Shown here: piece after piece, positions 2,869-19,901 of the stretch
Layout of the letters: the number at the start of each line of letters is the position of its first letter
Position numbering within the stretch: the stretch's first letter is position 1
Source of the DNA: Ostreococcus lucimarinus
Lineage: Eukaryota
NCBI GenBank assembly: GCA_000092065.1
Contig: CP000581.1
Length of the DNA: 64,000 nucleotides
Reading direction: 5' to 3' (one strand)
Translations under genes and position numbers: made by a program
The notes under the pieces: model-generated
Databases searched by the model: none
Seen by the model: the letters and a program-made list of their open reading frames with translations, nothing else
Told to the model about the DNA's origin: nothing

Positions 2869-5283
2869 TTACTGCTGCTCTACTTGGCGCCCTTCCGTCG
2901 TCGCGTTGACAAACTTTTTAAATACGACGTTCTCGTCGGCTTTAGTCGGGTTCTTCGAAGAATCCGACGGACTTTCTGCGGTGATTTCTTTTAAGATTTC
3001 ACTGGCTCGTTGCACGGCGCGGCTCGAAGCACCGTCTTGCGTGTTGTTTTGGAGCACCGTCTCGACAGCGCGCTCCGCCTCTTCGTCTGTCACCTTGTTC
3101 GAGGCGGCGACTATCTTTTCAACGATATCTTCCTGACTATCGACGTCTTTGCCCTTGCCCTTCTTCCACGCACGTGGTGCGATATTTATGGGTTCTTTCA
3201 GATTCTTGATGAGTTCATCTTTATTCTCCGTCTCTTCGACCACATTAGTCGCCGCTTGCCACACGGCCTCCGCTCCAGACTTTTTCGCCCCTCGTACCTC
3301 CTCCAACGTTTGCTCGATGATCGTGTCCGTCATTTCTAACCGTTCAGACGCAACCTGTAATCCATCGAGATCGGTGTTGACGTCTTCGGTCAGTTCTAGG
3401 ACGTCCGATGTTTCTTCGAGCGCATCGTCCGTTGCTCGTACTTTCTCAAGCGCCTCATCTGCGCGCTCGTGAACGTCGTCGGAGCTCTCATCAGCCTGGC
3501 TCGCTTCCCCTTCCTCTTCTATATCTCTCAACGTCTCGCGAACCTCGCGTAGGGTATCGCTTACATTTCTGTACGATTCTCTCGCTTTGGCGAATTTCTC
3601 CTTTGCCTCTCGCACGTCCTCTTCGTCGACATCTTTTCGAAACGGATTGAGCGAGTCGAATTCGCGCATCGCCGCTGAACGCGTTTCCTGACTTGAAGCG
3701 AGCGCGAGCGTGGATGTCACATCTTTCACCACGCTCTCGCTTAATTTCGACTCTTCGGAAAGTTGTGAAACAACTCGTTCTACGGCATCGATTCTTCTGA
3801 ATTTCGCCGCCGCGGTGAGAATCCTGTCGTAAACTTGCACCCTCGATCGTACGAATGTTTGAGCGGCGACGAGTCGTTGTATGATGACGACAACCTCAGC
3901 TTCTTCTTTCAAGGACTGCAGTGTGCTTCGTGTACATGCGATACCAATAAATACGCCAAATAGAATTAGCGCGTGCGCGCTGAGACGCACACCGCTCCCG
4001 AGCTGCTGCAGTAGTTTGAAATCATTCATACTTTTCTTCGAGCTCGACGACGGACACGTGCGCAGAAACATCATCCCAGGAAGAATGAATGTAAGTATCG
4101 AGCATGTCGTGCTACCGATGAGACCGAACACGTGTTGAATGTTTGGCACTGAAATGGACACGCGCAAGCAGCTGTAAAGCACGAGAACATCAAACACTAA
4201 TTCGGTGTGTCTTCCCGCCACGCGCGAGAGCGACAGCAAGAGCGAGGGCGATATTTCTCGCAAGGAAATGAAGAGAAGCGGCACGCCGGTGCATATAGCG
4301 CACCCGTACAAGAACCGTACCAACTGCGTGTAAATCCCAAACCATCCACTTTCCGCACCAAAGTTGCGCAAAACGTTACCGTTCACGCTCGACCCGAACG
4401 CCACGTATCCGCACGCGCCGGTGACGATGTAAAAGATCAACAAATGCACCATCGTCTCGTTCGCGATGCCGACGACGCGCGAGGTCGACATCACCGCCGT
4501 GCCCGAACTCTTCAACGCTGGAAACACCATCACGTGCGCCGCAAAATTAAATACCATGATCGGTAGCACCAGACCCAGCCCGCTCGCGTCCCACGTCTTC
4601 GACGCGCTCGATTTCCCGTCGCCGAGCGCCAACCGTCGCGCCGCGAGCGTCACCAAACACAATCCAAACAACCCCGTCGTCGCCAACCCGAACCCCACCA
4701 CTTTTTCGAGTCTTTTTTGACTCTTCACGAACGTCGCCAACGGCAAAAACACCCCAAACGTCACCCCCGCCATGACGCGTTCGCGATTCACCTCCACCCC
4801 AGCCGGCAGCACGCCGCTCGACGCCGCCGTGAAGAAATTATCCCCCACGATGTTTACGTACGCCACCACCACCCCGACCAACAGCGCGGCGATGCTATAC
4901 TTCGCGACGATCCTCCCTCGTCGTCCCAGCGTCGCGCTCGTCAAATCTTCGTACGACCACGCGCCGTGCGCGTTCGCGCAGTACAACATTTGCTCGAGCG
5001 ACAGCGCGCACGCCAGGCACGCCCCCGCGCTCGTCGCCGTCGTCAGCGCCAATCCGCACGCCGCGAAGCACGACGGCACCGCGAGCGCGCCGCTGCCGAG
5101 CATCGAGTTCAGGAGGCTCTTCGAGCTCGCGCGCGACGACGACGACGGCGCGAACGCGCGACGACGCGCCGCGCTCGAGCTCAGAATCTCATCTTGCGTC
5201 CGCCGCGGCGTCGAGCGCGCGCGCGCCGCGGCGTCGAGCGCGCTCGCGCTCGCGCGGGCGACCGCGCGCGCGGGGTCGCGCAT
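2869..5283 (-). CDS. Amino-acid transporter (Aa_trans/SLC38-AVT type) with a long acidic coiled-coil C-terminal tail
   Basis: The N-terminal SKSLLNSMLGSGALAVPSCFAACG matches the Aa_trans signature (N..n.ilGaGiLalP), followed by about 10 hydrophobic segments. About 330 aa of E/D/K-rich coiled coil follow the membrane domain. The stop lies only 15 bp from the TrmO stop (convergent). Confidence 0.7.
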   Translation of the reverse strand: MRDPARAVARASASALDAAARARSTPRRTQDEILSSSAARRRAFAPSSSSRASSKSLLNSMLGSGALAVPSCFAACGLALTTATSAGACLACALSLEQMLYCANAHGAWSYEDLTSATLGRRGRIVAKYSIAALLVGVVVAYVNIVGDNFFTAASSGVLPAGVEVNRERVMAGVTFGVFLPLATFVKSQKRLEKVVGFGLATTGLFGLCLVTLAARRLALGDGKSSASKTWDASGLGLVLPIMVFNFAAHVMVFPALKSSGTAVMSTSRVVGIANETMVHLLIFYIVTGACGYVAFGSSVNGNVLRNFGAESGWFGIYTQLVRFLYGCAICTGVPLLFISLREISPSLLLSLSRVAGRHTELVFDVLVLYSCLRVSISVPNIQHVFGLIGSTTCSILTFILPGMMFLRTCPSSSSKKSMNDFKLLQQLGSGVRLSAHALILFGVFIGIACTRSTLQSLKEEAEVVVIIQRLVAAQTFVRSRVQVYDRILTAAAKFRRIDAVERVVSQLSEESKLSESVVKDVTSTLALASSQETRSAAMREFDSLNPFRKDVDEEDVREAKEKFAKARESYRNVSDTLREVRETLRDIEEEGEASQADESSDDVHERADEALEKVRATDDALEETSDVLELTEDVNTDLDGLQVASERLEMTDTIIEQTLEEVRGAKKSGAEAVWQAATNVVEETENKDELIKNLKEPINIAPRAWKKGKGKDVDSQEDIVEKIVAASNKVTDEEAERAVETVLQNNTQDGASSRAVQRASEILKEITAESPSDSSKNPTKADENVVFKKFVNATTEGRQVEQQ

Positions 5284-5382: not shown

Positions 5383-8300
5383 ATGCGGCGCGCGACGCCG
5401 CGCGCGCGCGAGCGTCGAGCGGCGCGCGTCGAGCGAGACGCGACGTCGAGCGACGACGACGACGACGACGACGCGCCGCGAGTGGACGATTTGTTGGTGC
5501 CGTCGTCGAGCGACGACGAAGACGAAGACGAAGGCGACGACGACGGCGGCGAGACGACGCGCGAGGCGACGCGCGACGTCGGAACGATGCCGCTGTCGCT
5601 GTCGCGATCGATCGGGGACGCGAGCGACGCGGCGGTGCGAGTGCTCGTGCGACGAGTGTCGAGACGCGCGGAGGCGTCGGCGGCGGACGAAGACGACGAG
5701 GACGACGCGAGCGCGGACGACGCGAACGAGGACGAGAGCGAAGAGGATGGTTTAGCGATCGCGGCGATGCGCGAGGCGAGGTTGCTCGCCGGAGAGCGAG
5801 GGAAGAGCGAGGTGGGGACGTCGACGGCGGACGACGCGCGAGACGAGGCGAGACGAGCGCTTCGCGCGCTGCGAGCTCGAACGGAAAAGAATAGGACGGT
5901 GGGGACGGCGGCGAGCGCGGGTGGGGTGGTAGATTTAGTGAATGTGGAGAGAGTGACGAACGCTATGATGGATACCGTCGACGCGGGGAGGGCGATGTGT
6001 TGCGCGCTGGGTCCCGGAGAACGCGTCGCCGTGGGAACGGAGGGCGGTTTTATTTTTCTCGAACGCGGCGTGAACGATGAGCGGACGGTTTCGTGCCTGA
6101 AATCGGCGAATACTTTTGCTGGAATTTCAGCCACGCCCGGGGTGACGAGTTTGTGCTTCGATGAAAGGGGTGAGTGGCTCTTGGTGGGACACGACGACGG
6201 CGGTCTCACGCTGTGGGATATCAAGCGCACGCCGACGATTTTGAAAACAATCGTCGGCGCGCATCGAACGCCCGTGATAGCGCTCGTAATGCTTTCAAAA
6301 GTGGAGTCAAACGGTGTTGTTGACGTGATATCGTCCGAGGAGGGTGGCCTCGTCATTCATCACACGCTTTCGCCTCTCGGAATGGGTGTCGTTCGAGTCA
6401 AATCGGCGTCGCTCGGCGAGCGGACGTTCGTGATAGCGGCGCACGCGCTGCCTCGAGTCGGCTCGGTGAGTGTATCAGATATTAACGCCCATGATAATGG
6501 TATCATCAGTCCTACGTACGGTGAAACGCTGAGCGCAGCGAAGAATATTGCAGACGCCGCAGGCGTTGCGGCGTTGTGCACGATGAACGCCGTGCTCATC
6601 ATGCGACTCAATCCACGAGCTGAGGTCATCGCAAAGATCGTTCGGCCGCCAAACATCGCGGCTACCGTGCTACCTGTGATGTGTTGGAGCCCGAGGTGGG
6701 CGGATGAAGTCACTACGCATGACAACGTAGAAGAATGCAATCTTGTCGTGGTATGGGGCGCGAGCGTGTACGTGCTCTCCGTCGACGTTGAATCGATCAA
6801 GCGATCGCCTGGAGAAAATGAACGAACTAAACGCGCCGCAAATACATCGCGTATCCTGAATTCGTGGAGCATCGATCCAGAAGGCGTCGTTGCGAGTGCG
6901 ATGGCGACGGCTTGGCTGTCGCAAGACTTGATTTGTGTCCTTAGTAGCCGAAACAAGCTATTTGTTTACACGTCTCATGGGCAGCTCATAGAACGTGTTG
7001 CGACGAGCGAGCCTCCGATTGCTCGTGAAATTGTACAAGCCACCGCGAGCCATGACGCTGTTTTCGAGCGTTTGCCATATTGGCATGGATCTGTCGCCGT
7101 GCGCGGCGTTCATTTCGCTATGCTATCACCTTCGAGATTACGACGCGGCAAATTTTTCGGTTGGTTCGAGCGAATGCAAGCAAAGAAGGCGGAAGGCAAC
7201 TGGGTTGGTACTTTGAACACGCTTATTGAAGTCGCATCGGATGAGCTGCCGTTGTGGCCGAGCTTGTCGAAAAAGTATGCAGATCCGGAGACTACCCGGG
7301 AAAGGGCGGTGCAAGCGTTTGTCGACGTAGTCCCACAGTTCCTTGATGAATCTTTGAACAAACGTGGTATCGACTCTGACGATGCTGCGTATTTCGAACT
7401 AATAACAAGTGTCGTTTTCGGTCTGTTGCTTGCGTTTAACGCACTGAATCAAGTGTATGCGCCGGTGGTATTCGGTGCCTTCCTAAACTCAAAATGCAAA
7501 GCGGCGTTTTTGAAAGGCATGGTGCCCCATATCTTATCGGACAAGTTGCGTTCGTTACCTGCAGAAGTGATGCAAGCGCTCGTGGAGCACTATGCTGCGC
7601 TTGATGCGGCAAATGTGATTGAACAGTGCGTTCTGCATATGGATGTAGAATCGCTTGATTTGAATCAAGTCGCTCGACTCTGCAAACATCATGGCATGTA
7701 CAGCGCGCTCGCGCACGTGTTCACGAGAGCTTTAAATGATTTCATCACACCGGTCGAAGCCATGTTTCAAGCCTCGCTGGAGCCCAAGTTTGGTGATAAA
7801 GCTCGCGTTCGACAGGTCTTGCTGTTTATTTTCAAGACTATTCAAGGCGAACAGTTTCCAACAAACGGTTGTAGATTGTCGAGCGAAATCGTTAGTCAGT
7901 TTCGAATGGAGGTGATGAAATTTCTGTTTGAGCCAGTCGATCTTAATGTGTTTACAATGAGCACGCATGATTCCGAGTCAAGTTTGAGTACCACGTGGAA
8001 CGCAGCGATGGCGCTCGCCGTACGAGAAGACGATTCATCATGTCCACCATTGCGTCTTTTGTATCTTCTTCTTGCCGAACCCAAAGCCTCGACTGTTGTG
8101 CTGACGGAAATTTTGAAAGACTGGGACGCAAGTGAGAGCGAAATACTCGCCATAGATGGCCTTCCAACCGATCGCATGGGATCTCAGGTTATTGTTGAAG
8201 CCGTGGTTTTCGCCGCCGGTGCGTGTGGTCCCGTAAATTCAGCTCCAACTCGTTCAAGACTTCTCACGTTTGCCGCAAGCATCGTCGGTACCGGCCGCGC

Positions 8301-9678
8301 CACAGTGACGCAGCAAGTTGAACGGGAGCTCTTGGAAACTTTGGCGCTCGCGAAGACGAAACATGACGTCATAGAAAGAGAGAAGGCGATGGTATCCATC
8401 ATCGGACGGCGCATAGACGAAGATATTACGTTGAATGACGAGTGTCAAATCCTCAATCTCGCGCGAGAAGCACATTTTGCTCAAGCCGAAGCCGTGATAT
8501 ACATCGCATCTGGTGATCATATCAACGCTTTGAAGGCGCTCGCCGGTGATGAGCACCGGAGAAACGCTGCTGTACATTATGTAGACGTGTGCCTTGGTAA
8601 ATCAGGTCCAGGCATCGTGCATGCAGAGCAAATGAACGCTGGACCAGCGGTGGCACGAGCGCATCCACTCGACACCGAGAGCGCCAAGGTCTTTCAAAAC
8701 GAGCTCCTTGCGATCATGCCCGTCGTCGCCGCTAAATCCGCTGATGTATGCGCTCGTATTGCAATCGCGTACTTCCCACACGCACAAGCTGAAGTTCTGA
8801 ACGCACTATCATCGGAGCCTGTCTTGCAGTTTCAATACCTGCGACAAGTTCTCGAAGCCGTGCACGAAGTTAAAGACGGCGTCGGCAGCCCTCACGACAT
8901 GAGTCTCGTGGACTTGGTGTCGGCGACAAAATCCGTCGTAACGACGGAAATGGCTGAGTTGTACTTTCGACTCATGTGTCAATTCGAACCACAAGATGTG
9001 TTGAAGTACTTAAAAAGTGAAGACGTGAAGAGTTTAGACGAAGCTCGGTGCCTTGAATACTGCCGAGAGTTCAACGTCATGGATGCTACGGCCTACTTGC
9101 TCGAGGCTGCGGGTAACTACAACGAAGCGCTCAGTATTCATCTATGCAACTACTCCACTGGTATTCGCGCGATGGCGCAGCTCTTCACGACGAGTGGGGC
9201 AGAGTGGACAAAGACTGCGCCCGCGGAGAGTTTGATGAAGGGATTCGTCATCGAGACAAACGAAGCTTTACATGTAGCCGTCGGGATGTGTAGACGCGTC
9301 TCGAGCGAAGTATCAAATAGTGAAGAAATGTGGTGGTCTTGCCTCGATAGTGTGTTCCGTTCGTTGTTAGAGCTCACGGATGGCGCTTACAAGAGAGTGC
9401 GCGATGTTCTTGACGAACACTTGGAAGATGTTTTACGAGTGATGCTCGGACGTGTAGATAACGCGCATCTTTTGGAGATGATTATCAGCCGCTACGGCGG
9501 TAGAGATATCTCCGAACTTAGAAAATTACTCACACGCGTTTTCGGAAATTGCGCACTCGAGAGAGAGTTCTTAAAATCAGAGGGATCTAGCGTTAAGCAA
9601 GAGGCAGATAAAAAAGTTCTCGAGGATTTCCAAATTCGTCGCCGCGCTCAACGAGGGACGCGGCGCACGGTTCGATAG
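5383..9678 (+). CDS. VPS8: Vps8-like CORVET subunit (N-terminal WD40/beta-propeller plus Vps8-type alpha-solenoid); no C-terminal RING
   Basis: WD40-like LWDIKRTP...HRTPVIALV occurs near the N-terminus. The central block LNQVARLCKHHGMYSALAHVFTRALNDFITPVEAMF resembles the Vps8 family core (LCREHGLYDA...NDYVTP). Start set at the first in-frame ATG (5383) after the divergent transporter start at 5283. The listed ORF start at 4717 is a GC-rich read-through. Confidence 0.55.
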   Translation: MRRATPRARERRAARVERDATSSDDDDDDDAPRVDDLLVPSSSDDEDEDEGDDDGGETTREATRDVGTMPLSLSRSIGDASDAAVRVLVRRVSRRAEASAADEDDEDDASADDANEDESEEDGLAIAAMREARLLAGERGKSEVGTSTADDARDEARRALRALRARTEKNRTVGTAASAGGVVDLVNVERVTNAMMDTVDAGRAMCCALGPGERVAVGTEGGFIFLERGVNDERTVSCLKSANTFAGISATPGVTSLCFDERGEWLLVGHDDGGLTLWDIKRTPTILKTIVGAHRTPVIALVMLSKVESNGVVDVISSEEGGLVIHHTLSPLGMGVVRVKSASLGERTFVIAAHALPRVGSVSVSDINAHDNGIISPTYGETLSAAKNIADAAGVAALCTMNAVLIMRLNPRAEVIAKIVRPPNIAATVLPVMCWSPRWADEVTTHDNVEECNLVVVWGASVYVLSVDVESIKRSPGENERTKRAANTSRILNSWSIDPEGVVASAMATAWLSQDLICVLSSRNKLFVYTSHGQLIERVATSEPPIAREIVQATASHDAVFERLPYWHGSVAVRGVHFAMLSPSRLRRGKFFGWFERMQAKKAEGNWVGTLNTLIEVASDELPLWPSLSKKYADPETTRERAVQAFVDVVPQFLDESLNKRGIDSDDAAYFELITSVVFGLLLAFNALNQVYAPVVFGAFLNSKCKAAFLKGMVPHILSDKLRSLPAEVMQALVEHYAALDAANVIEQCVLHMDVESLDLNQVARLCKHHGMYSALAHVFTRALNDFITPVEAMFQASLEPKFGDKARVRQVLLFIFKTIQGEQFPTNGCRLSSEIVSQFRMEVMKFLFEPVDLNVFTMSTHDSESSLSTTWNAAMALAVREDDSSCPPLRLLYLLLAEPKASTVVLTEILKDWDASESEILAIDGLPTDRMGSQVIVEAVVFAAGACGPVNSAPTRSRLLTFAASIVGTGRATVTQQVERELLETLALAKTKHDVIEREKAMVSIIGRRIDEDITLNDECQILNLAREAHFAQAEAVIYIASGDHINALKALAGDEHRRNAAVHYVDVCLGKSGPGIVHAEQMNAGPAVARAHPLDTESAKVFQNELLAIMPVVAAKSADVCARIAIAYFPHAQAEVLNALSSEPVLQFQYLRQVLEAVHEVKDGVGSPHDMSLVDLVSATKSVVTTEMAELYFRLMCQFEPQDVLKYLKSEDVKSLDEARCLEYCREFNVMDATAYLLEAAGNYNEALSIHLCNYSTGIRAMAQLFTTSGAEWTKTAPAESLMKGFVIETNEALHVAVGMCRRVSSEVSNSEEMWWSCLDSVFRSLLELTDGAYKRVRDVLDEHLEDVLRVMLGRVDNAHLLEMIISRYGGRDISELRKLLTRVFGNCALEREFLKSEGSSVKQEADKKVLEDFQIRRRAQRGTRRTVR

Positions 9679-9740
9679 CTAGTTTAGGAAAATCAGAAAA
9701 GTAAAAACAAATTGCTAACATTGCTAAAGCTCGACGCGTT

Positions 9741-11009
9741 TCAATCTCCTGTTTCTTGGCGAACAAGCTTGCCAGACGGTGTTTCTGTGTAGTCGACGAC
9801 CACGTCCCCTGTTGGAATGTCAACCATCGATCGCGAGCGATGCAACCCGTTTTCAGATTCCGTATCTTCGTCAAACGACAGGCGTGGGGGCTTCCAGCCA
9901 TCTTTCACCGCCTTCGTTAAAGGTGGAACGAAGTCTTTCTTGCGGCTCACCAGGCCCGGAAGTTTCAGCATCGTTCCATCGTTCTCGAGCACTCCACTGT
10001 ACGCCGCCACGGCGAGCGAGGCCTCGACGCGTCCGCAGATCAGCAGTGTGGACGTGAGGTTGACAATGTCGACGATAGCTAGAAGCATGGCTTTCGTGGA
10101 TGGCGTCACCAACTTTACGGCGCGCATTTCCGGAAGTATATCCGCCGCTCGCGAGAGCGATGCGTCCGCATCCGTCGTCTCGATGACCGAATACGCCACC
10201 TCGTACGTCTCCTGATCACCAGTGAACTTGAACTGCTTCATATCACCGTTCACGAGTGCATACGGTGTCATCAGACTCAGCGACTGACTCTTCGCGCGAA
10301 ACTGTCGGGCTGCGAGCTCGTTCACATCCTGGACCTCTAAGTACTGCACCAGCATCGTCACGACGCGCTCATCCCACGTCGTCGTCGTTGGAGACTTCAA
10401 GTTTAGCGTGTCACTCAAAATCGCGCTAAGCAACATTCCGGCTATGTGTTTGGGCAAAAACTTCCCTTGTACCGCGTGATTATGCGCGATGATGGACGAC
10501 ATGCACCCCCACGGTCGAATGTCGACGAAAATCGGTCGCTCAGTCACGATGGTGTTCGACTGCAGCGCGTGATGATCGATAATCCCCACGATGTTCCCCA
10601 TCGGAATCGCCGGGTTCAACTGCGACTGCTGCTGAAAATCAACCAAGCAGACGTTCCTATCCGGTCGTTCCGCTAAAAGTGTCTCCACGGGTTCGGGCAG
10701 CGTCGCGCCCCACGTATCCAGCGCGAATCGCGTCTCCGTGTTCACGGCGCTCGCGACCGCCGCGCTCCCTCCGTACAGATTCGCCGCCCCGATCGCCCCC
10801 GCGACGGAATCTAAATCTGTCACCAAGTGTCCGACGAATATCGCGTCGTCCAGGCTCGGAAAGAACGCGTTCGTCTCCCCCTCGCGCGTCGGCAGGTGCG
10901 CCAGGAGTTTTTCAGCCTCCGCCCAGTTCGCGTCGACCGCGTGCTCCAGCGTCGTCTCTTCGCGCGCGCTGTACGTCTCCCGCCGCTCGCGCTTCAGCGT
11001 CATCTTCAT
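9741..11009 (-). CDS. DHH-family phosphoesterase: family II inorganic pyrophosphatase / exopolyphosphatase (DHH plus DHHA2)
   Basis: GHLVTDLDSVAGAIGAANLYGG (Asp-rich motif I/II) and GIIDHHAL (DHH motif) are present, plus a DHHA2-like C-terminal half. Start set at MKMTLKRE (aa 201 of the listed ORF). The 200 upstream residues are R/S/T low complexity that overlaps the divergent promoter. A targeting extension cannot be excluded. Confidence 0.7.
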   Translation of the reverse strand: MKMTLKRERRETYSAREETTLEHAVDANWAEAEKLLAHLPTREGETNAFFPSLDDAIFVGHLVTDLDSVAGAIGAANLYGGSAAVASAVNTETRFALDTWGATLPEPVETLLAERPDRNVCLVDFQQQSQLNPAIPMGNIVGIIDHHALQSNTIVTERPIFVDIRPWGCMSSIIAHNHAVQGKFLPKHIAGMLLSAILSDTLNLKSPTTTTWDERVVTMLVQYLEVQDVNELAARQFRAKSQSLSLMTPYALVNGDMKQFKFTGDQETYEVAYSVIETTDADASLSRAADILPEMRAVKLVTPSTKAMLLAIVDIVNLTSTLLICGRVEASLAVAAYSGVLENDGTMLKLPGLVSRKKDFVPPLTKAVKDGWKPPRLSFDEDTESENGLHRSRSMVDIPTGDVVVDYTETPSGKLVRQETGD

Positions 11010-11267
11010 CGACGCGATCGCGACCGCGACGACGCACGCCCACGCCGCCGTTCGGCGCGGCGTCGCCGGTCGCGCGCGCGGTGTCGTAACCGCCTCGACG
11101 CTCGCGTCGGCGCGCGCGCGAGCGCGTCGCGCGCGCGAGCGCGTCGCCGTCGTCCGCGACGACGCGGCGATGACGCGTCGCGCCTCGCTCGCGCGCGCTC
11201 GAGGCGCGCGCGCGTCGCGATGTCGCGTCGTCGCCGTCCGTCGCCGCGCGTCGTCGAGCGATGCATC

Positions 11268-11290
11268 GGTCGATCGATCGATCGATCGAT
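11268..11290. repeat. (GATC)n microsatellite in a bidirectional promoter
   Basis: gtcgatcgatcgatcgatcgatgg lies between the PPase start (11009, minus) and the VPS26C start (11317, plus). Confidence 0.8.
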
Positions 11291-11316
11291 GGACGCGCGC
11301 CAGACGACGACGCGCG

Positions 11317-12294
11317 ATGAGCCGCGTGGACGTGTTCCTGGAGTCGAGCGATAGTAAATACCGCGAGCGCGACGTCGTGCGCGGCGAGGTGGTGGTGCGC
11401 GTCGAACGCGAAGACGCGCCGTTCGCGCACAACGGTGTTCTGCTCACGGCGTGTGGAAACGTGCAGCTGCGCGTCGGAGACTCGAGCGTGAGCGTGCTGG
11501 AATCGCTGTTCATGGTCGTCGAACCGGTGCGCGTGCTGGACGTGTCGCTGGTGCTGGCGCCGCCGGGACGGCTGGCGGTGGGGGTGCACGCGTTTCCGTT
11601 TTCGTTCACGCTGGGGAGCTTTCCGCCGACGACGCCGATGTACGAGACGTTTCACGGGCAGAACACGCAGATAGTGTACGCGATCGATGCGGAGGTGGTG
11701 CGGCCGATCCTGCGTGGGGGGTCGCTGTCGACGGGGATGTGCGAATTTTTAGTGGAGACGAAGCCGGACGAGGACGACGTCGCCGACGCGGCGGCGAGCG
11801 AGACGATGGCGTTCGAGATCACGGAGGAGCGGCAAGATTTGGGACCGGCGCCTGGATTGTTAGCGAGCGAAGGGTTCTTGATTCGCGGATCGTTCGATAA
11901 GACGAGTTGGTTTTTAGAGGAGGCGATCACGGGGCGGCTCGTCGTCGAACGCTCGGCGGCGCCGCTCAGGGCGATCGAAATCGAGCTGTGTCGCATCGAG
12001 GGTTGCAGCACGAGCGAGGGTCAGGTGGTGAGTGAGACATCGCCCGTGCAGTTCACGCAAATCGTCGACGGCGACTGTCCGCGCGGGGTGGAGATTCCGA
12101 TACACGTCGTCATCCCGCGCCTGTTCGCGTGTCCGAGCGTGCAGGCGCCGACGTTTAGCGTCGCCTTCATGCTGCGCGTTCTGTGCGTGTTCGAGCCATT
12201 GAACCCTGGAAATAAAGAACCGGTGGCCGTTCGCGCGGTGCCAATTCAGTTATACCGAGGCGGGCCCGACATCCCGAGCGCGTTGGCGTATTAA
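11317..12294 (+). CDS. VPS26C: VPS26C / DSCR3 (retriever complex arrestin-fold subunit)
   Basis: Strong match to human DSCR3: PMYETFHGQNTQIVYAIDAEV~LYETYHGVFVNIQYTLRCDM; GRLVVERSAAPLRAIEIELCRIEGC~GELVVESSEAAIRSVELQLVRVETC; IVDGDCPRGVEIPIHVVIPRLFACPSVQAPTFSVAF~IADGDVCRGLSVPIYMVFPRLFTCPTLETTNFKVEF. Start at the in-frame ATG (MSRVDVF), 326 aa. Confidence 0.8.
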   Translation: MSRVDVFLESSDSKYRERDVVRGEVVVRVEREDAPFAHNGVLLTACGNVQLRVGDSSVSVLESLFMVVEPVRVLDVSLVLAPPGRLAVGVHAFPFSFTLGSFPPTTPMYETFHGQNTQIVYAIDAEVVRPILRGGSLSTGMCEFLVETKPDEDDVADAAASETMAFEITEERQDLGPAPGLLASEGFLIRGSFDKTSWFLEEAITGRLVVERSAAPLRAIEIELCRIEGCSTSEGQVVSETSPVQFTQIVDGDCPRGVEIPIHVVIPRLFACPSVQAPTFSVAFMLRVLCVFEPLNPGNKEPVAVRAVPIQLYRGGPDIPSALAY

Positions 12295-12506
12295 ATCTCG
12301 TAGTGCGAATAGCGTTAGCGTCTCGAAGAGACATACAATCAAATCAAACCCCCGTCGACCCGGGTCACGGCGTCGTCGCGCGCATCGCGCTTACTTCGTT
12401 CGCGCGCGCGCGTGCGCTATTTTCTCGCTCACTCGTCGTTCATTATCATCACAACGAACGAACGACGACGTCCCGTTCGTTCTTCTACATAGCCTTCTAA
12501 TCAATC

Positions 12507-12782
12507 TCAATCCTCCTCCTCGCTCTCGTCCTCGTCCTTGGCGTTGATCCTCTCGCACGCGTCGATCCAATCGCTGTACACGTCGATCGGTTCGCTCAGG
12601 TGCGTGATGTTGCACGTGTACTTCTGTCCGCACGTCCCGCACTCCACCAGCCCCTTCTCGGCGACGTGATCGAGTCGCGCGAACACGCTCTTGTCGTGAT
12701 TGCAAAACGGACACGTGAACGTCGTGTCCACCTTCGGGGCCACCTTCTTGGGCGGCGGCTTGGAGCTCTTGCGCTTGCCCAT
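12507..12782 (-). CDS. ELF1: Transcription elongation factor 1 homolog (ELF1, Zn-ribbon)
   Basis: MGKRKSSKPPPKK...FTCPFCNHDKSV...ECGTCGQKY...IDVYSDWIDACE plus an acidic tail; 91 aa. This is the classic Elf1 C4 zinc ribbon. The rest of the listed 237-aa ORF is GC-rich read-through. Confidence 0.85.
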   Translation of the reverse strand: MGKRKSSKPPPKKVAPKVDTTFTCPFCNHDKSVFARLDHVAEKGLVECGTCGQKYTCNITHLSEPIDVYSDWIDACERINAKDEDESEEED

Positions 12783-12840
12783 GGCGAGCGCGCGCGGGCG
12801 GTCGTGCGACGAGCGATGCGGCGCGCGCGCGACTCTGCGG

Positions 12841-12880
12841 ACGGGACGACGGACGACGGACGACGGACGACGGACGACGC
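12841..12880. repeat. (GGACGAC)n heptamer repeat in the ELF1 / APH-kinase divergent promoter
   Basis: acgggacgacggacgacggacgacggacgacggacgacgcg seen directly. Confidence 0.75.
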
Positions 12881-13037
12881 GCGCGCCACACGCGCGCGCG
12901 AACGACGCGCGGCGCGAGCGATGGCGACGCGCGCGAACGCGCGCGGCGCGCGCGCGACGCGCGCGAGCGCGCCGACGGTGACGTCGCGCGTCGCGCGGGG
13001 ACGGCGCGTCGCGGATAAAACGCGTGGGACGCGCGGG

Positions 13038-14025
13038 ATGACGGCGGCGGCGAGCGTGGCGTCGACGAACGAGTCCGCGGAGGCGGCCGCGGCGCCGGCG
13101 GTGGTGTCGACGTCGACGTTCGCGAGCGCCGACGACGCGGAGCTGCGCATGACGTGCGAGGCGTTCGCGCCGGGGAGCGCGTTCGCGCTGACGGATACGA
13201 GCGGCGGCGTGAATAATCACGTGCGATATTGCGATTGCGAGAACGGTGAGCGATTCGTCGTTCGATTATATAATAATGGACGCGAAACCGAGCGTGTTTG
13301 AACTCATTCCTGGTTCGCTCCCGAAGACGCGCTTCGCCGACGCGGTGGGAGAGGCGACGGCGGCGCTTTCGAAGTGTATGGAAGAAGCCGAAAGCGAAGT
13401 GCGTGCCGTTGCTCCGGTGAGCCCGACGAGCGTGTATCGGGACATCTTCGGAGCGTTCATCAAGAAAGGTGGGTCGCGCGATGCATTTTTCGTCGAGGCG
13501 GAGACGAACCCAGGTTTGGATGCCGTTCGAGTTTCGGTGAACGACTTGCTCAACTCTATTCGCGTACTTGAAGAAAAATTGGCCGACATCGAATCTTCGG
13601 GAGGCTTACCCGAGACGCTGATCCACGGCGACGTCCATTACGATAATTCCCTCGCGGATGAGACGACGGGTAAAGTCACGGGCATCATCGACTTTGAGTT
13701 TGCATCGTACGACTGGCGTATGATGGAAGCCGCCGCAGGTTTGTCCAAGTACGTCGGCGAACGCGATCCTCTGCCGTTCGTTGTCGACTACATCAAGGGA
13801 TTTTGCCGGCGCGCGACGCCGACCGAGGCCGAGATCGACGCCCTTCCGGACTTGATAAAACTTCGCGTGCTCGAAACCGTCGTGTACTTCGTCGCGAGAA
13901 GCGCCGCGAAAGAAGACGACATCTCGCAACTAGCGCTCAGAGCCGAAAACTACGCCGCGCGCGTTCGATGGATCGACGCCAACGCGCAAGTCATTCGCGA
14001 CACCATGCGCACCGCGCTCGCGTAA
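13038..14025 (+). CDS. APH-fold phosphotransferase (homoserine kinase type II / aminoglycoside-phosphotransferase-like). The reading frame is broken between the N-lobe and the C-lobe.
   Basis: The N-lobe in frame 0 (about 13038-13298) reads ...ALTDTSGGVNNHVRYCDCENGERFVVRLYNNGRETERV*, which is the Gly-rich loop plus the VxLK-type beta3 strand. The C-lobe in frame +1 (13246-14025) carries LIHGDVHYDN (HGDxHxxN catalytic loop) and IIDFEFASYDWRMME (DFE metal-binding motif). The frames can only be joined by a 1-nt shift near 13285-13295 or by an unconventional intron. See findings. Confidence 0.55.
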
Positions 14026-14186
14026 ACGATCGTTATTTTTTAACTATTCTTTCTCCATTCACTCGCGCGCTCGCGCGCTCGCGTTTTCGCTCTTCACTAA
14101 AACCGTAAAATCCACGCCTGGATGCAATCTCGAGATCTTCGTATGCGCAAACAGTCGCGGGCGACGCGACGGCACAACTCGACACG

Positions 14187-15557
14187 ATGCTTTCGACGAC
14201 CATCACCACCCCGAGCGCTTTCGTGAAGCCGCAAGCGCCGCGAACGCGCGTCAAGGCGCGCGCCGACAGCACCATGGCCCCGCCCACGACGCGCGTGCCG
14301 CCGAGAAACCCCGAAGGTGCGCGACGGCGCGATCGATGCGCGCCGACGCGATGTCGTGGTTTATCCAGTGCGATGGGTGACGATGACGACGCGTGTGACG
14401 GCGTGCGATGCGTGAACGACGCGATGGGGATGAGAAAGGATGTGAAATGATATCGATCGCCGCGAAACGCGTCGACGCGGGCGAACGCGATGACTGACGA
14501 GTGTGGATGACGATTGATTGCTCCAGGCGCGCCGACGGTGGTGCCGCAAGATTTGCCGAGCCGACCGCGACGCAACCGCCGCTCGCCGACGGTGCGAAAG
14601 GCGTTCCGCGAGACGATTCTCACGCCGGATAACTTCATTTACCCGATTTTCGTGCACGAGGGCGATGAGAACATTCCCATCGGTTCTATGCCGGGACAAG
14701 ACCGCCTGAGCTTCAAGAATGGCATGATCAAGCAAGTGCGCGAGGCGCGCGCGGCCGGCGTGAACCAAGTGGTCGTCTTCCCGAAGACCCCGGATAACTT
14801 GAAGACGGCTTGCGGGAAGGAGGCGTTCAATCCGAACGGCTTAGCCCAACGCTCGATCTCGTTGTTGAAGGATACGTTCCCCGATTTGGAAGTGTACACC
14901 GACGTCGCGCTCGATCCGTACAACACTATGGGCCACGACGGCATGGTGCGCTCCGACGGCGTCGTCATGAACGACGAAACGGTGTACTATTTGTGCCAAC
15001 AAGCCGTGTCCCAAGCGCGCGCGGGTGCTGATGTTATTTCTCCGTCCGATATGATGGATGGTCGCGTCGGTGCCATTCGCCAAGCGCTCGACGACGAAGG
15101 TTTCACCAACGTCGCCATCATGAGTTACACCGCCAAGTACAACAGCGCGTACTACGGTCCGTTCCGTGATGCCTTGGCGTCGGCGCCGCGTCCGGGTAGT
15201 GAAGACTGGAAGATTCCGAAGGACAAGGCTGAGTACCAAATGGACCCGGCCAACTACCGTGAGTGCTTGCGCGAAGCTGCTCTCGATGAACAAGAGGGCG
15301 CGGACATCATGATGGTCAAGCCGGCGGGCGCCTACTTAGACATCATCCGCGCGCTTAGAGACAGCACCACGCTCCCAATTTCCGCGTACCAAGTGTCTGG
15401 CGAATACTCCATGTTGAAGGCTGCCGCCGCGGCGGGTTACCTTAACGAACGCGATGCGGTCTTGGAATCCTTGATCGCCATCAAGCGCGCCGGAGCCGAC
15501 TTGACGTTAACGTACTATGCCATCGATGCCGCCAAGTGGATCCAAGAAGGCAACTAA
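14187..15557 (+). CDS. HEMB: Delta-aminolevulinic acid dehydratase (porphobilinogen synthase), Mg-type, with a transit peptide encoded on a separate 5' exon: join(14187..14316,14527..15557)
   Basis: Exon 2 is unmistakable ALAD: PRRNRRSPTVRKAFRETILTPDNFIYPIFVHEGDE..., DVALDPYNTMGHDG in place of the Cys-rich Zn site (so plant/plastid Mg-type), and the active-site Lys region MVKPAGAYLDII. Exon 1 reads MLSTTITTPSAFVKPQAPRTRVKARADSTMAPPTTRVPPRNPE, which is Ser/Thr/Arg-rich and transit-peptide-like. Donor G|GTGCGC at 14317; acceptor TGATTGATTGCTCCAG| ending at 14526. The join is in frame and gives ...NPE-G-APTVVPQDLPSRPRRNR, as in plant ALADs. Confidence 0.8.
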
Positions 15558-15795
15558 GTTGAACGCGAGTAGGACATACATTTTTAATATCGATGATTAC
15601 GCAATGATTTACGAACGAGCGCCGACGAAGGAGGCAAAACAGGGCGAATGCGCATGAGGTCGGCGAAGCTTCTGACTTTTCACTACACCGCTGATGAAAT
15701 CTAACTCAAACCTCGAGACGCTCCAGCGCTAGACACCGCTCTCGACGATCTAGGGTCGATCATATTCGATCGAATTCTCCACTCCACGCGACCAC

Positions 15796-16549
15796 TTAGT
15801 AGAAGTAGCCGAGCACCTTGCCACCAACCTTCTTGCGACGGGCCTCCTCGTGGTCCATGATGCCCGACGACGTGGTGAGCACGATGACACCAAACAAACG
15901 AGAGGGCAAAAGTCGACCAACCCAGTCCTCAAGGTCGTGGTGGGACAAATCATAACGCGGGCTACGAGTTTAAAACCATTCATCGTCAGTCTCCGAGTCT
16001 TAATCGACGTTTAAAGAAGACGCGCTTCTCGACGAGCGTTCGCGCAGACCCTAAAACACACGCACCTGATGACGCCGCACTTGTTGATACGTCCGTTAAG
16101 CTCAACGACGATCTTTCCCGCTCTGTGATCATCAATGAACTCGAATTCGTTGATGTAGCCTATTCGTTGTAAACCATTCCGTCGTCAGTCTCCACATTCA
16201 TCCTGTGATGCGCGCGCCGCTTTCAGGATCGTTCGCGCGCGTCCCGCTCGCGTTCCCCTCTCTTCACACGTACCGTGCTTTTGCATCACTTGCAAGAACT
16301 TGATCACCACCTTGGAAACCGGGCGCACGAGCACCTGACGCTTCCCACGCTTTTCCGCGTTGTACATCGACTCTGCAGAGCGCGCGAACACGATCGATCG
16401 CGAGGTTAGTCACAGACCCTAAAACACCACAGCGCGAGGACGCGATTCGGCGCCGTCGCGACACGCGCGACGTCGCGACGCGTCATAACGCGCGTGCGAA
16501 CGATGATAGACGTACTGAGAGTGTCATTCAAGACGCTGATTCGGACCAT
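15796..16549 (-). CDS. RPS15A: 40S ribosomal protein S15a (uS8), 4 exons: complement(join(15796..15961,16066..16159,16274..16372,16516..16549))
   Basis: Not in the ORF track as one unit. The spliced translation is [130 protein letters not shown] (130 aa). It is colinear with human RPS15A (130 aa) at about 70% identity. Donors: A|GTACGT, G|GTACGT, AG|GTGCGT. Acceptors: TCTGCAG|, CGAATAG|, CTCGTAG|. Exon lengths 34+99+94+166 = 393 nt, and all phases are consistent. Confidence 0.9.
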
Positions 16550-16679
16550 GGCGCTTGTCTCTTGACCGCACGCGTCGTCTAAAGGCGGATGCGACTGGCC
16601 GCGCGAGGGCTTTCGACTTCGTGGTCCGTGTGGCAAGACCGACATTAGGGCTTTCAGCGCTTTCGAGGCCGTCGGGCGT

Positions 16680-16805
16680 CTGAAGGAGTCTGCTCGTGAT
16701 ACGGACGACGACGATGGTCATCTGAAGGAGTCTACTCGTGATACGGACGACGACGATGGTCATCTGAAGGAGTCTACTTGTAATACATACATACGATGAA
16801 GATCG
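16680..16805. repeat. 42-bp tandem repeat, about 2.7 copies, upstream of RPS15A
   Basis: tctgaaggagtctgctcgtgatacggacgacgacgatggtca is followed by a near-identical copy (g to a) and then a degenerate third copy. It lies about 130-250 bp 5' of the RPS15A ATG on the minus strand, immediately 3' of the cyclophilin gene. Confidence 0.75.
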
Positions 16806-17894
16806 TCATCTAAAGGATTCTAGGACGCCGGCGCGGACGATTTTTGCCTCGCCCGTGGGCTCGCCGTCGGAAGAGGCCAACTTGTTGATCGCCCAAGCGT
16901 GCTCCATGCCGTCGACGACTTCGCCAAAGATGACGTACGAGCCATCTAAATGCGGCGCTGGGGCCATGACGATACTAAAGTGCCCTGTGTTGGTGTTTGG
17001 TCCGGCGTTGGCGACGCTTAGCAAACCAGGCCGGTCGTGTTTGAGTCGCAAGCCGCCGGGATCGTCGTCGAACGCTTTTCCCGGATTCACAGCACTTCCC
17101 GAGGCGGTGTGCGACCCTGTCTGGTCAATGAATCGGTCGAGAATTCTATAAAACTTCGAACCGACCCATGTATACTCTTCCGAAGGTTCGCCCACGCACA
17201 TTCGTCGGAAATTTTCCGCCGCGAGCGGGCTCGTGTCGGCGTACAATACAAATTCGATGCGCTCCGCGTCAGCGCCGTCGATGGAGACGTCGAGGTACAC
17301 GCGATGATTCCCTTTGGCGTGGCGTCTTTTAGTCTTCGCTCTTTCTTCTGCGTTGACTTCTTCCTCCGCTTTTTCCGCTTCTTCCGATGAAAACAACGCC
17401 CCGCTCGTCCATCGAGAGTCACCGCCTCGTCGTTCCGCGGCAAACAGTGCCCGCGCCGCGTTCTTCGCGTCGTACTTCAACCAACACTCCCCGCGCTTTC
17501 TATCACCTCCGCACCCCCCTTCGTCGCCGCACCAGACCCATACGTTACATTTTCTCGCGCTCTCTTCGCACGCTCGGCAGCACGCCTCGGCGCTCGACGT
17601 CTTGAAATCGCTGCCCCAGCGCACGACGCCGCCGTCGAGCTCAACGCGAGCCCCGACGTCCGCACCGCACGTTCCGGTCATCGATGATCGTCGTGAATCG
17701 ATCGCGCGCACGACATCGACGTCATCGACGCCATTTACGTCGCTCACGAACGCGCGCGAGTGCGACGTGATTGGATTGTTCACGATGACGTAAAACGCGA
17801 GCGCAACGGCGGCGGCCACGGAGTAACGCACCGTACGCAGAAGCGCTCGAGCGTCGACATTTCGTCTGTACTGCCCGCCACGCGCGAGAGCCAT
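16806..17894 (-). CDS. Membrane-anchored cyclophilin-type peptidyl-prolyl isomerase with an N-terminal PAN/Apple-like Cys-rich domain
   Basis: N-terminal signal anchor (YSVAAAVALAFYVIVNN). PAN-like Cys pattern FKTSSAEACCRACEESARKCNVWVWCGD...GECWLKY. C-terminal cyclophilin domain VYLDVSIDGADAERIEFVLYADTSPLAAENFRRMC...FYRILDRFIDQTG...GHFSIVMAPAPHLDGSYVIFGEVVDGMEHAWAI. Confidence 0.75.
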   Translation of the reverse strand: MALARGGQYRRNVDARALLRTVRYSVAAAVALAFYVIVNNPITSHSRAFVSDVNGVDDVDVVRAIDSRRSSMTGTCGADVGARVELDGGVVRWGSDFKTSSAEACCRACEESARKCNVWVWCGDEGGCGGDRKRGECWLKYDAKNAARALFAAERRGGDSRWTSGALFSSEEAEKAEEEVNAEERAKTKRRHAKGNHRVYLDVSIDGADAERIEFVLYADTSPLAAENFRRMCVGEPSEEYTWVGSKFYRILDRFIDQTGSHTASGSAVNPGKAFDDDPGGLRLKHDRPGLLSVANAGPNTNTGHFSIVMAPAPHLDGSYVIFGEVVDGMEHAWAINKLASSDGEPTGEAKIVRAGVLESFR

Positions 17895-17972
17895 CGCCGC
17901 GCGGAGGTCTGACGAGGAAGGACGACGCGAGCCAGTCGAAAATATCTATTTCTACGTTACAACTAAGATGAG

Positions 17973-19901
17973 CTAGTACGCGTTGGAAAACGCGGTATTC
18001 GCGCGCCCGTCGAGATGGCGAGGACTTTCACCGCTCGTCAACGCGGTGTACATGGACGGCTCCGCGGCGGGCTGTTTTGGATTCGGCGCGGCGGCGCCCG
18101 ACGCCGTCGGAGGAAGACCAGACTTCTTCGCAAGCTTGGCAGATACTTCGTACTTCATCGTCGGCTTTATGGCCATATGGAACTGCGCTTCAAGACCGGC
18201 AAAGGAGCCAAAAATCATGTCAGCCAAGGGCATGAGCATCCATTGCACTTGGCTCACGAGTTGCCACCACATTGGCGCGACGTTGCACTCGAAGTGTTCT
18301 CTGTCGTGAATGACGAAGAGACGAATGTAAAATTCACTGATGATGATGGCCCAGCACGCAAACGTCATCGGAAAGAACGCTACTACGGTGAGAGAGCGTA
18401 ACCCAATTCCAAATGGATACGTCTCGAGCACTGGGTTCGCCCAAGTCGAGCATAAACCGCCCAACATGCACGTAAACCAAAAGAGAGTCCACGAAATGTG
18501 GTGCTCCGCCGCGTGCACGTACAGCTTCATCATCCGCGTGAATGAAACCTTGTCTCGTCTCTCTAAGTAATTCATCACGATGTACGACAGATCGATCGCC
18601 CCCCAGGCGTGTCTTTTGGCTTGAATGTATCGAGCCTTAATGGCCTCATTCCATGACCGCTCTTCGATGGCATCGTTGCCCATCACCATGAAGATGGGCA
18701 CAACGCGGTAATCACCATCCTTTTTAAACCAGCACTTTAAATAGTGGTGCCAATCTTCGGGGATGATATCCACATCCCAACCACCGCACTCGATGGACGT
18801 TCTGAGACTTTGCGAATAAATCGCAAATGGGAACGGATGACTAAACGGCGACGCGAGTTGACCGAGGAAACCGACGCTATCAATCACAGCCTTGATACGA
18901 ATGAGAATCGGTACGTTCCAAATGTTCGGGAAAAAAGTCTCCGCAGCCTGGTACGTGGTGTTGTACGGCTTTGGATTTTGCACGTGATTATACGCCAAGC
19001 AGTCCATGAACTGCGAGTCAAAGTACGTATCCGCGTCGCACACCGTGAGCATAATTTGCTCCGGCGCCAATCCGCGCTTCTCCACAAACTCTCTCTTGAC
19101 GCATCGAACCGACCACGCACAGTTCGAACTTTTCCCGACCGCCTCGCCTGCGCCGAGCACGTGCTTGGTGTAATACAGTCCCAGGAGCGACGACCCGAAC
19201 TCGTCGATTAGTTCTCCCACCTTGGCCGGCGCCTCGGTGTCTCGACTCTCCGTCGCGAGTACGACGATTAATCGCTCTTTCGCACACGTCTGCGTCGCCA
19301 ACGTCCCTACAGTCTTACGCAGTGTCCCGAGAGGCTCTTTGTACGTGGGAATCACGCACACATGGATGATATCGTTAAACTTATCCGTGAGTCCGCGCTT
19401 CAACTTCCCGTCCACGCCGCTCGTCCACGTGTGCTCGTCGTCCCCAACCAACGTCGGTTTTTCGTTCGCCTTGTACACCTGTCCGGCGCCGCCAAAGAAC
19501 CTATCGTAACACGGTGATTTCAACGTTCCATCGTTTCCGAGTCGATGCCAATCCGCATCCTTATACGTGTGTAACAACGGAATCCCAACCAGCAACGCCG
19601 CGAAGCCGCTGTGAATGCCTTTCACCCACCCATAACAAATGTACGCGCAGATGAACGCCACCGTCAGCGCTGGGCTCAGGCGCGCCCCCCACAGCAAAAC
19701 AAACGTAATCAGCGTCATGCTCATCGCGAATGGCAGCGTGAACATCACCCGTTCCAACGCTCCGCCGCGGTACGCGATGTTGTCCCGAAGATCCTCGCTC
19801 GCGTCGTCGAGCAACGCGGCGTCGCCGACGTCCATCGAGCGCACTTTCGGGCGCGCGAGGGCGTCGGAGACGACCAAGCGCACTCGCGTCGATCGAGTCA
19901 T
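17973..19901 (-). CDS. Family-2 membrane glycosyltransferase (Glyco_trans_2_3-like; processive beta-glycan-synthase-like)
   Basis: TM helices flank a cytosolic GT-A domain: VCDADTYF (DxD), QAKRHAWG (QxxRW-like), and a C-terminal multi-TM pore region (TLFWFTCMLGG..., FFPMTFACWAIIISEFYIRLF). The substrate is unknown. Confidence 0.6.
   Translation of the reverse strand: MTRSTRVRLVVSDALARPKVRSMDVGDAALLDDASEDLRDNIAYRGGALERVMFTLPFAMSMTLITFVLLWGARLSPALTVAFICAYICYGWVKGIHSGFAALLVGIPLLHTYKDADWHRLGNDGTLKSPCYDRFFGGAGQVYKANEKPTLVGDDEHTWTSGVDGKLKRGLTDKFNDIIHVCVIPTYKEPLGTLRKTVGTLATQTCAKERLIVVLATESRDTEAPAKVGELIDEFGSSLLGLYYTKHVLGAGEAVGKSSNCAWSVRCVKREFVEKRGLAPEQIMLTVCDADTYFDSQFMDCLAYNHVQNPKPYNTTYQAAETFFPNIWNVPILIRIKAVIDSVGFLGQLASPFSHPFPFAIYSQSLRTSIECGGWDVDIIPEDWHHYLKCWFKKDGDYRVVPIFMVMGNDAIEERSWNEAIKARYIQAKRHAWGAIDLSYIVMNYLERRDKVSFTRMMKLYVHAAEHHISWTLFWFTCMLGGLCSTWANPVLETYPFGIGLRSLTVVAFFPMTFACWAIIISEFYIRLFVIHDREHFECNVAPMWWQLVSQVQWMLMPLADMIFGSFAGLEAQFHMAIKPTMKYEVSAKLAKKSGLPPTASGAAAPNPKQPAAEPSMYTALTSGESPRHLDGRANTAFSNAY

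Follow-up and report, generated by a model that had tools for sequence, protein, structure and literature searches.

The window analysed here is a 64,000-nucleotide (nt) stretch of chromosome 1 of the green alga Ostreococcus lucimarinus CCE9901 (assembly GCA_000092065.1, contig CP000581.1). Its subject is the gene at positions 13038-14025 on the forward strand, which encodes a small-molecule kinase of the APH fold and is split there between two reading frames; the lesion that divides it is compared below with intact and disrupted alleles of the same gene in environmental sequences.

The split kinase gene in CCE9901

An open reading frame (ORF) that begins in frame 0 at ATG 13038 translates as MTAAAS...TSGGVNNHVRYCDCENGERFVVRLYNNGRETERV; its kinase part ends at RLYNNGRET and contains the motifs TSGGVNNHV (13197-13223) and VVRLYNNG (13257-13280), after which the frame closes at a TGA (Table 1). 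In the +1 frame, which overlaps frame 0 by about 55 nt, an open stretch runs from GTG 13246 to TAA 14023-14025 and carries VFELIPG (13294-13314), the catalytic loop HGDVHYDN (13624-13647), and IIDFEFASYDW (13684-13716), in which IIDFEF (13684-13701) is the metal-binding motif. The division over two frames had been described in an earlier note made from the letters of the window, and it was confirmed at these positions, as were the GTGAGC at 13246 and the AG at 13350-13351 that the note had pointed out as the boundaries of a conceivable intron. The reference annotation enters part of the gene as a 249-residue 'predicted protein', XP_001415481.1, which the C-lobe ORF from ATG 13276 matches at every residue (exact-sequence look-up, P0040). 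The first six residues of this protein, MDAKPS, are the N-lobe codons NNGRETE read out of frame, so its sequence is specific to the window allele, and the annotated protein appears to be a mere leftover ORF of the C-lobe.

When a construct of the window gene repaired by 1 nt was used as a protein query, it retrieved P0001, a protein of 451 amino acids that is identical to the query save for an insertion of about 50 residues between ...RLYNNGRET and VFELIPG.... The contig that encodes P0001, the environmental L001 (ENA ERZ27295423, 55,960 nt), has the gene order of the window (Vps8, DHH, Vps26, Elf1, kinase, ALAD) and contains the kinase as one uninterrupted ORF of 377 codons, with its ATG at 5223 and its stop ending at 6356. 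In BLAST alignments, window positions 12401-13291 correspond to L001 4586-5476 at 99.8% identity and window positions 13290-14200 to L001 5621-6531 at 100% identity. Read base by base, with slashes at the breakpoints, the intact sequence of L001 runs ...AAACCGA/TCGAGTGG...TTGCGGGA/GCGTGTTTG... and that of the window ...AAACCGA/GCGTGTTTG.... The number of missing nucleotides, 146, is not divisible by three, which changes the frame in the window, and the N-lobe and C-lobe remnants are identical to residues 1-84 of the intact allele (P0034/P0001) and to its C-lobe (100%), respectively. Because the junction yields '...RETERV', close to the native '...RETDRV', a slip of 1 nt appeared sufficient to the earlier note, which held that a single-base shift at 13285-13295 would join the lobes with all motifs intact. 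That proposal fails on the comparison with L001, since about 49 conserved residues are gone and the APH profile is matched only from position 76 onward.

The deleted residues, approximately 85-134 (DRVAFEHAVLRAVEPKVAACDSGFVVPRALEAKDGSGARYVVLPSGDCG), are kept in all orthologues and include the invariant positions V87, E90, L94, P111, and G130. They make up helix alphaC with the invariant Glu90, together with beta4 and beta5 up to the hinge; in an AlphaFold model of the intact protein (predicted local distance difference test 89.7, predicted template-modelling score 0.87), a helix at 84-103 (alphaC) and strands to 132-137 lie in this stretch. The intact allele matches the Pfam APH profile (PF01636) at 81.4 bits over profile positions 6-231, against a cutoff of 23.2, whereas the C-lobe ORF of the window matches it at 56.1 bits over positions 78-231 only and the repaired construct over 76-231 only, with positions of about 35-76 lost. 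The window allele does not contain the complete bilobal domain in one frame, as residues of about 85-134 are absent and the remainder is divided between two frames, and the missing fold elements suggest that it cannot yield an active kinase. Its ORF is disrupted relative to an intact allele of the same species (L001, P0034) whose flanks are 99.8-100% identical, as in a polymorphic pseudogene. Window 13038-14025 is therefore very probably a null allele, in CCE9901, of a small-molecule kinase conserved in the Mamiellophyceae, inactivated by a 146-nt deletion and belonging to a series of deletions in the population.

The kinase passes the gathering threshold of the APH or 'Phosphotransferase enzyme family' (PF01636), and its HxDxxxxN catalytic loop and D(F/I)E metal-binding motif are invariant columns in the family alignment. 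It resembles the type II (ThrB2-like) homoserine kinase 2PPQ of Agrobacterium (profile match, E = 5e-15) in its bilobal, protein kinase-like fold, its HxDxxxxN loop, and its DFE motif, and it shares its fold with the N-acetylhexosamine 1-kinase 4OCJ, the aminopropanol kinase 6EF6, and the amicoumacin kinase 6SUI. Foldseek template-modelling scores to solved relatives in the APH superfamily were 0.63-0.77, but sequence identity to 2PPQ and the other solved relatives is only 15-19%. The NCBIfam homoserine-kinase models NF003558 and TIGR00938 scored 41.1 bits against a cutoff of 271 and 33.1 against 255.9; these wide shortfalls leave the label 'homoserine kinase type II', given to relatives by the Joint Genome Institute (JGI), unsupported as an equivalog. 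Among named relatives the nearest are hypothetical proteins, and the family seems to form a separate green-algal clade; a search of viral contigs for a homologue found none.

Deletion alleles and orthologues in environmental sequences

Truncated C-lobe proteins identical to that of the window were abundant in the protein collection, and further alleles were found by fetching the contigs that encode them and aligning these to L001. Besides the deletion of the window (allele A), at least eight deletions of 152-506 nt were verified by base-by-base reading (Table 1); allele D is in frame and the others shift the frame. A 1-nt variant of allele G, G2, is present at locus L026, and a candidate allele J in L012 (L001 5241, a gap of N, 5830) is unverified. 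All nine verified deletions remove L001 5477-5556, a core of 80 nt, and their right breakpoints cluster at 5557-5563 (E, G, G2, and H), 5609-5623 (A and F), and 5732-5738 (B and C). The junctions have 0-5 nt of microhomology and include one templated inverted insertion, features that fit microhomology-mediated or templated end joining: the 10-nt insert of allele C, CTCACCGGAG, is the reverse complement of window 13412-13421, just downstream. Window 13399-13421 holds the ends of alleles B and C, at most 6 nt apart at GTGCGTG/CCGTTGCTCCGGTGAGC, and a short palindrome, GCTCCGGTGAGC, that was the template of the inverted insert; a frameshift of a sister lineage (P0093, described below) falls near the same codons (SEV/RAV).

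Table 1 Coordinates of the kinase locus in the window and of the deletion alleles on the intact contig L001
Feature	Position	Strand	Description	Source
N-lobe remnant ORF	window 13038-13301	+	residues 1-84, then junction codons E-R-V and TGA 13299-13301	
Deletion junction	window 13290-13291	+	2-nt microhomology GA; 146 nt (L001 5477-5622) missing between 13291 and 13292	
C-lobe remnant	window 13292-14025	+	+1 frame, residue ~134 to 377, stop TAA 14023-14025	
Annotated coding sequence XP_001415481.1/ABO93773.1	window 13276-14025	+	249 amino acids, 'predicted protein'	O. lucimarinus CCE9901 chromosome 1
Divergent intergenic/promoter region	window 12783-13037		very GC-rich; shared by the kinase gene and Elf1	
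Elf1 gene	window 12507-12782	-	neighbour, eukaryotic	
ALAD gene	window 14514-15557	+	neighbour, eukaryotic	
Allele A	L001 5477-5622		146 nt, microhomology GA	window and three Logan contigs
Allele B	L001 5244-5736		493 nt, microhomology GCGTG	17 contigs, many samples including TARA and coastal sets
Allele C	L001 5370-5737		368 nt, with 10-nt insert CTCACCGGAG	L008
Allele D	L001 5316-5663		348 nt, in frame, microhomology C	947-kb JGI contig
Allele E	L001 5349-5556		208 nt, no microhomology	1.13-Mb JGI contig
Allele F	L001 5452-5608		157 nt, with AA inserted	three samples
Allele G	L001 5242-5561		320 nt, microhomology GAGCG	two samples
Allele H	L001 5407-5558		152 nt, no microhomology	one sequence shown; six more places similar
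Allele I	L001 5289-5794		506 nt, with 1 nt inserted	L042; scaffold L013 has the same ends

The intact protein was found on approximately 145 contigs of the same species (P0034 on 103, P0036 on 17, P0037 on 11, plus others), and truncated forms on a comparable number, though contig ends and N-gaps account for some of these. Wild O. lucimarinus commonly carries the intact allele, and at least eight further deletion alleles of independent origin coexist with it. Across 11 kb, at window 7816-19025, these loci align collinearly with 98.8-100% identity and few gaps, none above 18 nt, and no other insertion or deletion (indel) of at least 100 nt occurred in these flanks in any of the aligned loci. 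Allele B was found on several combinations of flanking single-nucleotide polymorphisms, which argues against one clone or a single assembly, with the qualification that consensus contigs may be mosaics; the nearly universal full length of clusters from other lineages likewise argues against a general assembly artefact. In simulations under a conservative null, in which deletion sizes were kept and placement was confined to the interval where deletions are detectable, a common core of at least 81 nt had P = 0.006 and the clustering of right ends P = 0.03, statistics that are suggestive, not overwhelming.

Several further candidates for alleles were rejected. P0055, a 162-residue protein on about 50 contigs, had the look of a common allele, and the places shown for it are scaffolds with gaps of 100 N at the polymorphic spot. 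Four ENA records of the '..._METAG-scaffold' type (L012, L013, L014, and L063) have exactly 100 N there, and contig ends within the scaffolds fall on deletion breakpoints, those of L013 on allele I and those of L014 on allele B. The co-occurrence of intact and deleted alleles probably interrupts assembly at this spot, after which gene callers output the 162-residue fragments. P0041 and P0038 are contig-end fragments or intact genes with another start call, and P0033, a seeming deletion after RLYN in another genus, is an adapter chimera: at 3106-3138 of L071 the contig end is the Nextera adapter CTGTCTCTTATACACATCTGACGCTGCCGACGA, and the truncated N-lobe protein is an artefact of it. An attempt to count alleles by looking up junction-spanning ORFs as exact sequences was given up as well, as nine of the ten were absent from the collection.

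In other lineages the gene is a single uninterrupted ORF at every locus that spans it, from 93% down to approximately 65% identity; intact ORFs are present in at least six of these lineages, and their clusters are almost all full length, including those of O. tauri (XP_003083552.2) and of the very abundant P0014 lineage (about 200 contigs). In a sister lineage of about 91-93% identity, an intact copy (L041) stands beside several differing small frameshifts: after residue ~165 in P0093, after ~196 in P0022 and in P0150 with P0054, and at multiple positions in P0149. Apart from these sister-lineage cases, a small frameshift lies inside the core, after residue ~98, in P0094, which is 96% identical to O. 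lucimarinus. P0150 and P0054 are adjacent on a 24,770-nt contig as MDA9766446.1 and MDA9766447.1, both named 'phosphotransferase [bacterium]' at NCBI; they are the two halves of a frameshifted Ostreococcus-lineage kinase on a picoeukaryote contig that was binned in a bacterial metagenome-assembled genome. A different kind of change is present in the O. tauri-like contig L037, where the N-lobe is heavily altered in the region 3001-3450: its codons 46-150 show 24 nonsynonymous and 3 synonymous codon differences from L038, about 63% of them AT to GC. These changes destroy GGVNNHV and VYNNG while the frame stays open and the C-lobe remains nearly identical to that of L038, which suggests hypermutation of a limited region, biased gene conversion, or an exchange of sequence with a decayed copy.

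Origin of the deletions and alternative explanations

The deletions may have arisen by end joining or by replication-slippage repair that used short microhomologies, with the 10-nt templated inverted insert of allele C as would be expected of repair of the polymerase-theta type. Their persistence would follow if the O. lucimarinus clade can do without the gene, whose loss may be neutral or, in some conditions, favoured. Three drivers, which are not mutually exclusive, were considered. Relaxed constraint with ongoing neutral loss stands at close to an even chance, selection for loss of function is a plausible but doubtful driver, and a local break-prone site is unlikely as the chief cause of the clustering. 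The small frameshifts of the sister lineage fall elsewhere in the gene and point to selection on the whole gene being relaxed or reversed, a pattern that a single fragile site would not explain; the shared core and the clustered ends may nonetheless leave room for a local mutational bias.

Taken as a full alternative, such a bias would mean that a replication block or site-specific cleavage in the 80-nt core raises the local deletion rate very strongly, with repair by microhomology or templated end joining, and that the clustering does not reflect selection. The common core of all nine deletions, the four right breakpoints within 7 nt (5557-5563) and two within 6 nt (5732-5738), the templated insertion in allele C, and the 11 kb of flanks free of comparable indels are consistent with it. 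However, in the sister lineage the gene was disabled through small frameshifts located elsewhere, the P values given above are modest, and ascertainment is biased. No G-quadruplex was found in the 5' half of the gene with G4Hunter at a threshold of 1.2, the single-stranded fold of L001 5440-5640, examined for a hairpin or cruciform, is weaker than that of shuffled sequences (z = +1.5), and a search for long repeats found only short imperfect direct repeats, two of which fit allele D and the unverified allele J. We therefore consider a break-prone site an improbable explanation.

A null allele within a population deletion series, the reading preferred here, has its own difficulties. All sequences in which allele A was observed match the reference strain exactly; the allele may be confined to CCE9901 and could even date from its time in culture. 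Detection ran through truncated C-lobe proteins, so that deletions confined to the C-lobe would be missed; a search for N-lobe-only proteins, aimed at alleles disrupted in the C-lobe, returned few clusters and omitted obvious full-length matches, and is not a fair survey, even though it still brought out frameshifted alleles. Allele frequencies are rough, metagenome contigs are consensus sequences that can mix strains, and the breakpoints cluster with no G-quadruplex, hairpin, or long repeat found to account for it. Loss of function is itself a prediction from missing fold elements, and in every deletion allele the C-lobe still reads as an open frame with 100% identity to the intact sequence.

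An open and unchanged C-lobe would also agree with the truncated 249-residue protein being a functional new isoform, for example a pseudokinase or a scaffold, and the locus not being dead; the strongly diverged N-lobe beside the conserved C-lobe in the O. tauri-like contig L037 is consistent with this. A lone C-lobe would nevertheless have neither alphaC nor the sheet that binds the nucleotide, the deletions of alleles B, C, and I take away the ATGs at 13276 and 13379 so that no comparable ORF start is left, the frameshifts of the sister lineage break the C-lobe, and identity in the C-lobe is expected given young deletions. A functional C-lobe protein is, on these grounds, very improbable.

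The earlier note had left three causes for the split frame: a sequencing or assembly indel, recent pseudogenisation, or a programmed +1 event. Recent pseudogenisation is the one that fits. Frame breaks in draft genomes are often errors and the region is GC-rich, but the lesion is 146 nt and not 1 nt, and further contigs carry other deletions that are equally clean. Moreover, three Logan assemblies (SRR1179203, SRR847307, and SRR23274481) that are 100.0% identical to the window over 2.2-3.7 kb show this very junction, and its repetition in assemblies of separate SRA runs argues against an assembly error; that CCE9901 carries an intact gene is hardly credible. Expression of an intact product through an intron (GTGAGC 13246 to AG 13351) or a programmed +1 ribosomal frameshift near 13290 can practically be dismissed: GT...AG boundaries and about 55 nt of overlapping frames are present, but in the intact conspecific allele and in all orthologues the gene is one unbroken ORF, the candidate intron would take out VVRLYNNG (for which the earlier note had rightly disfavoured it) and no product collinear with the orthologues results, the two frames together still lack about 49 conserved residues and the frame-repaired product APH profile positions of about 35-76, and, with the 146 nt coding for alphaC to beta5 absent from the DNA, neither splicing nor frameshifting can restore them.

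Beyond the null allele and its deletion series, a stronger claim would be that the N-lobe is knocked out repeatedly in wild O. lucimarinus, either because loss is sometimes advantageous or because of an unrecognised site-specific break in the 80-nt core. We put this forward tentatively and regard it as rather unlikely. If it were true, presence and absence of an enzyme would form a balanced polymorphism that occurs naturally in one of the most abundant picoeukaryotes of the ocean and that metagenomes make directly readable. As pure conjecture, loss might be advantageous if the enzyme activated a bacterial toxin or antimetabolite or were used by a prasinovirus.

Parallels, significance, and neighbouring sequence

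Polymorphic pseudogenes and loss-of-function allelic series are known from natural populations, for example Arabidopsis FRIGIDA and human CASP12. As in those cases, intact and several independently disrupted alleles of the kinase segregate in one species; unlike them, the species is a haploid marine picoeukaryote read from metagenomes, and the lesions are mostly deletions of 150-500 nt that share a core instead of scattered point mutations. Recurrent independent deletions of the Pel enhancer of Pitx1 in sticklebacks have reportedly been attributed to selection together with DNA fragility. They are similar in that many independent deletions with differing ends share a common core at one locus, but at Pel the fragility of a TG-repeat has been demonstrated and the phenotype under selection is known, whereas no fragile motif was found at the kinase locus. 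Deletions mediated by polymerase theta at replication blocks in Caenorhabditis elegans are said to span 50-300 nt, with microhomology and templated inserts. The kinase deletions are comparable in size range, in microhomologies of 0-5 nt, in the one templated inverted insertion, and in having a breakpoint cluster (5557-5563) with variable opposite ends; in contrast to the nematode case, no G-quadruplex motif lies beside fixed ends. Within the Mamiellales, indel size markers track strains of Bathycoccus prasinos (PMC11539686). Multi-allelic indels of hundreds of nt segregate in these populations, but the Bathycoccus markers are mostly promoter or repeat-length variants (PMC11539686), whereas the kinase locus has a series of gene-killing deletions in one enzyme gene. 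A literature search for reports on the kinase locus or on its deletion series found none.

Taken alone, the feature in the window is a deletion pseudogene of an ordinary kind, entered in the reference annotation as a 249-residue protein; the multi-allelic series in the wild adds a new case to the known phenomenon of segregating loss-of-function series. XP_001415481.1 should carry a flag as a pseudogene fragment, and CCE9901 would be without an enzyme that is common in wild members of its species. In an alga that is abundant worldwide, the locus provides a small, naturally occurring set of knock-outs, comprising intact alleles, one in-frame deletion, at least seven frameshifting deletions, and the frameshifts of a sister lineage, and it opens a way to the function of a green-algal kinase family that is still uncharacterised. 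It could also serve as a size marker for strains, since amplicons would differ by 146-506 nt, and as a test case for distinguishing neutral gene loss, adaptive loss, and DNA fragility in a very large haploid population.

The neighbours of the kinase gene, Elf1 and ALAD, are both eukaryotic (Table 1); the cluster that contains the ALAD protein also includes XP_001415482.1, the next CCE9901 accession. The intergenic regions at 12783-13037 and 14026-14513 are far GC-richer than the coding sequence and have many CGCGCG runs, and a GACGGAC/GACGAC repeat at about 12841-12880 differs among contigs. Spurious long ORFs cross these regions on both strands (for example, 12600-13301 on the forward strand, 12596-13150 and 14033-14638 on the reverse), and the last of them has been called by JGI as a gene of 201 amino acids. 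Prokaryote-style gene callers wrongly extend the kinase ORF upstream, and the resulting N-terminal extension of 74 residues gives rise to the 451-residue calls. The gene order differs in O. tauri-like lineages, in which the kinase stands between a GH47 gene and a mitochondrial-carrier (Mito_carr) gene, as against Elf1 and ALAD in O. lucimarinus. The metaclust protein P0020 (382 amino acids) is a gene-model fusion of an O. tauri-lineage kinase with the downstream mitochondrial-carrier gene (PF00153), in the same order as in L037.

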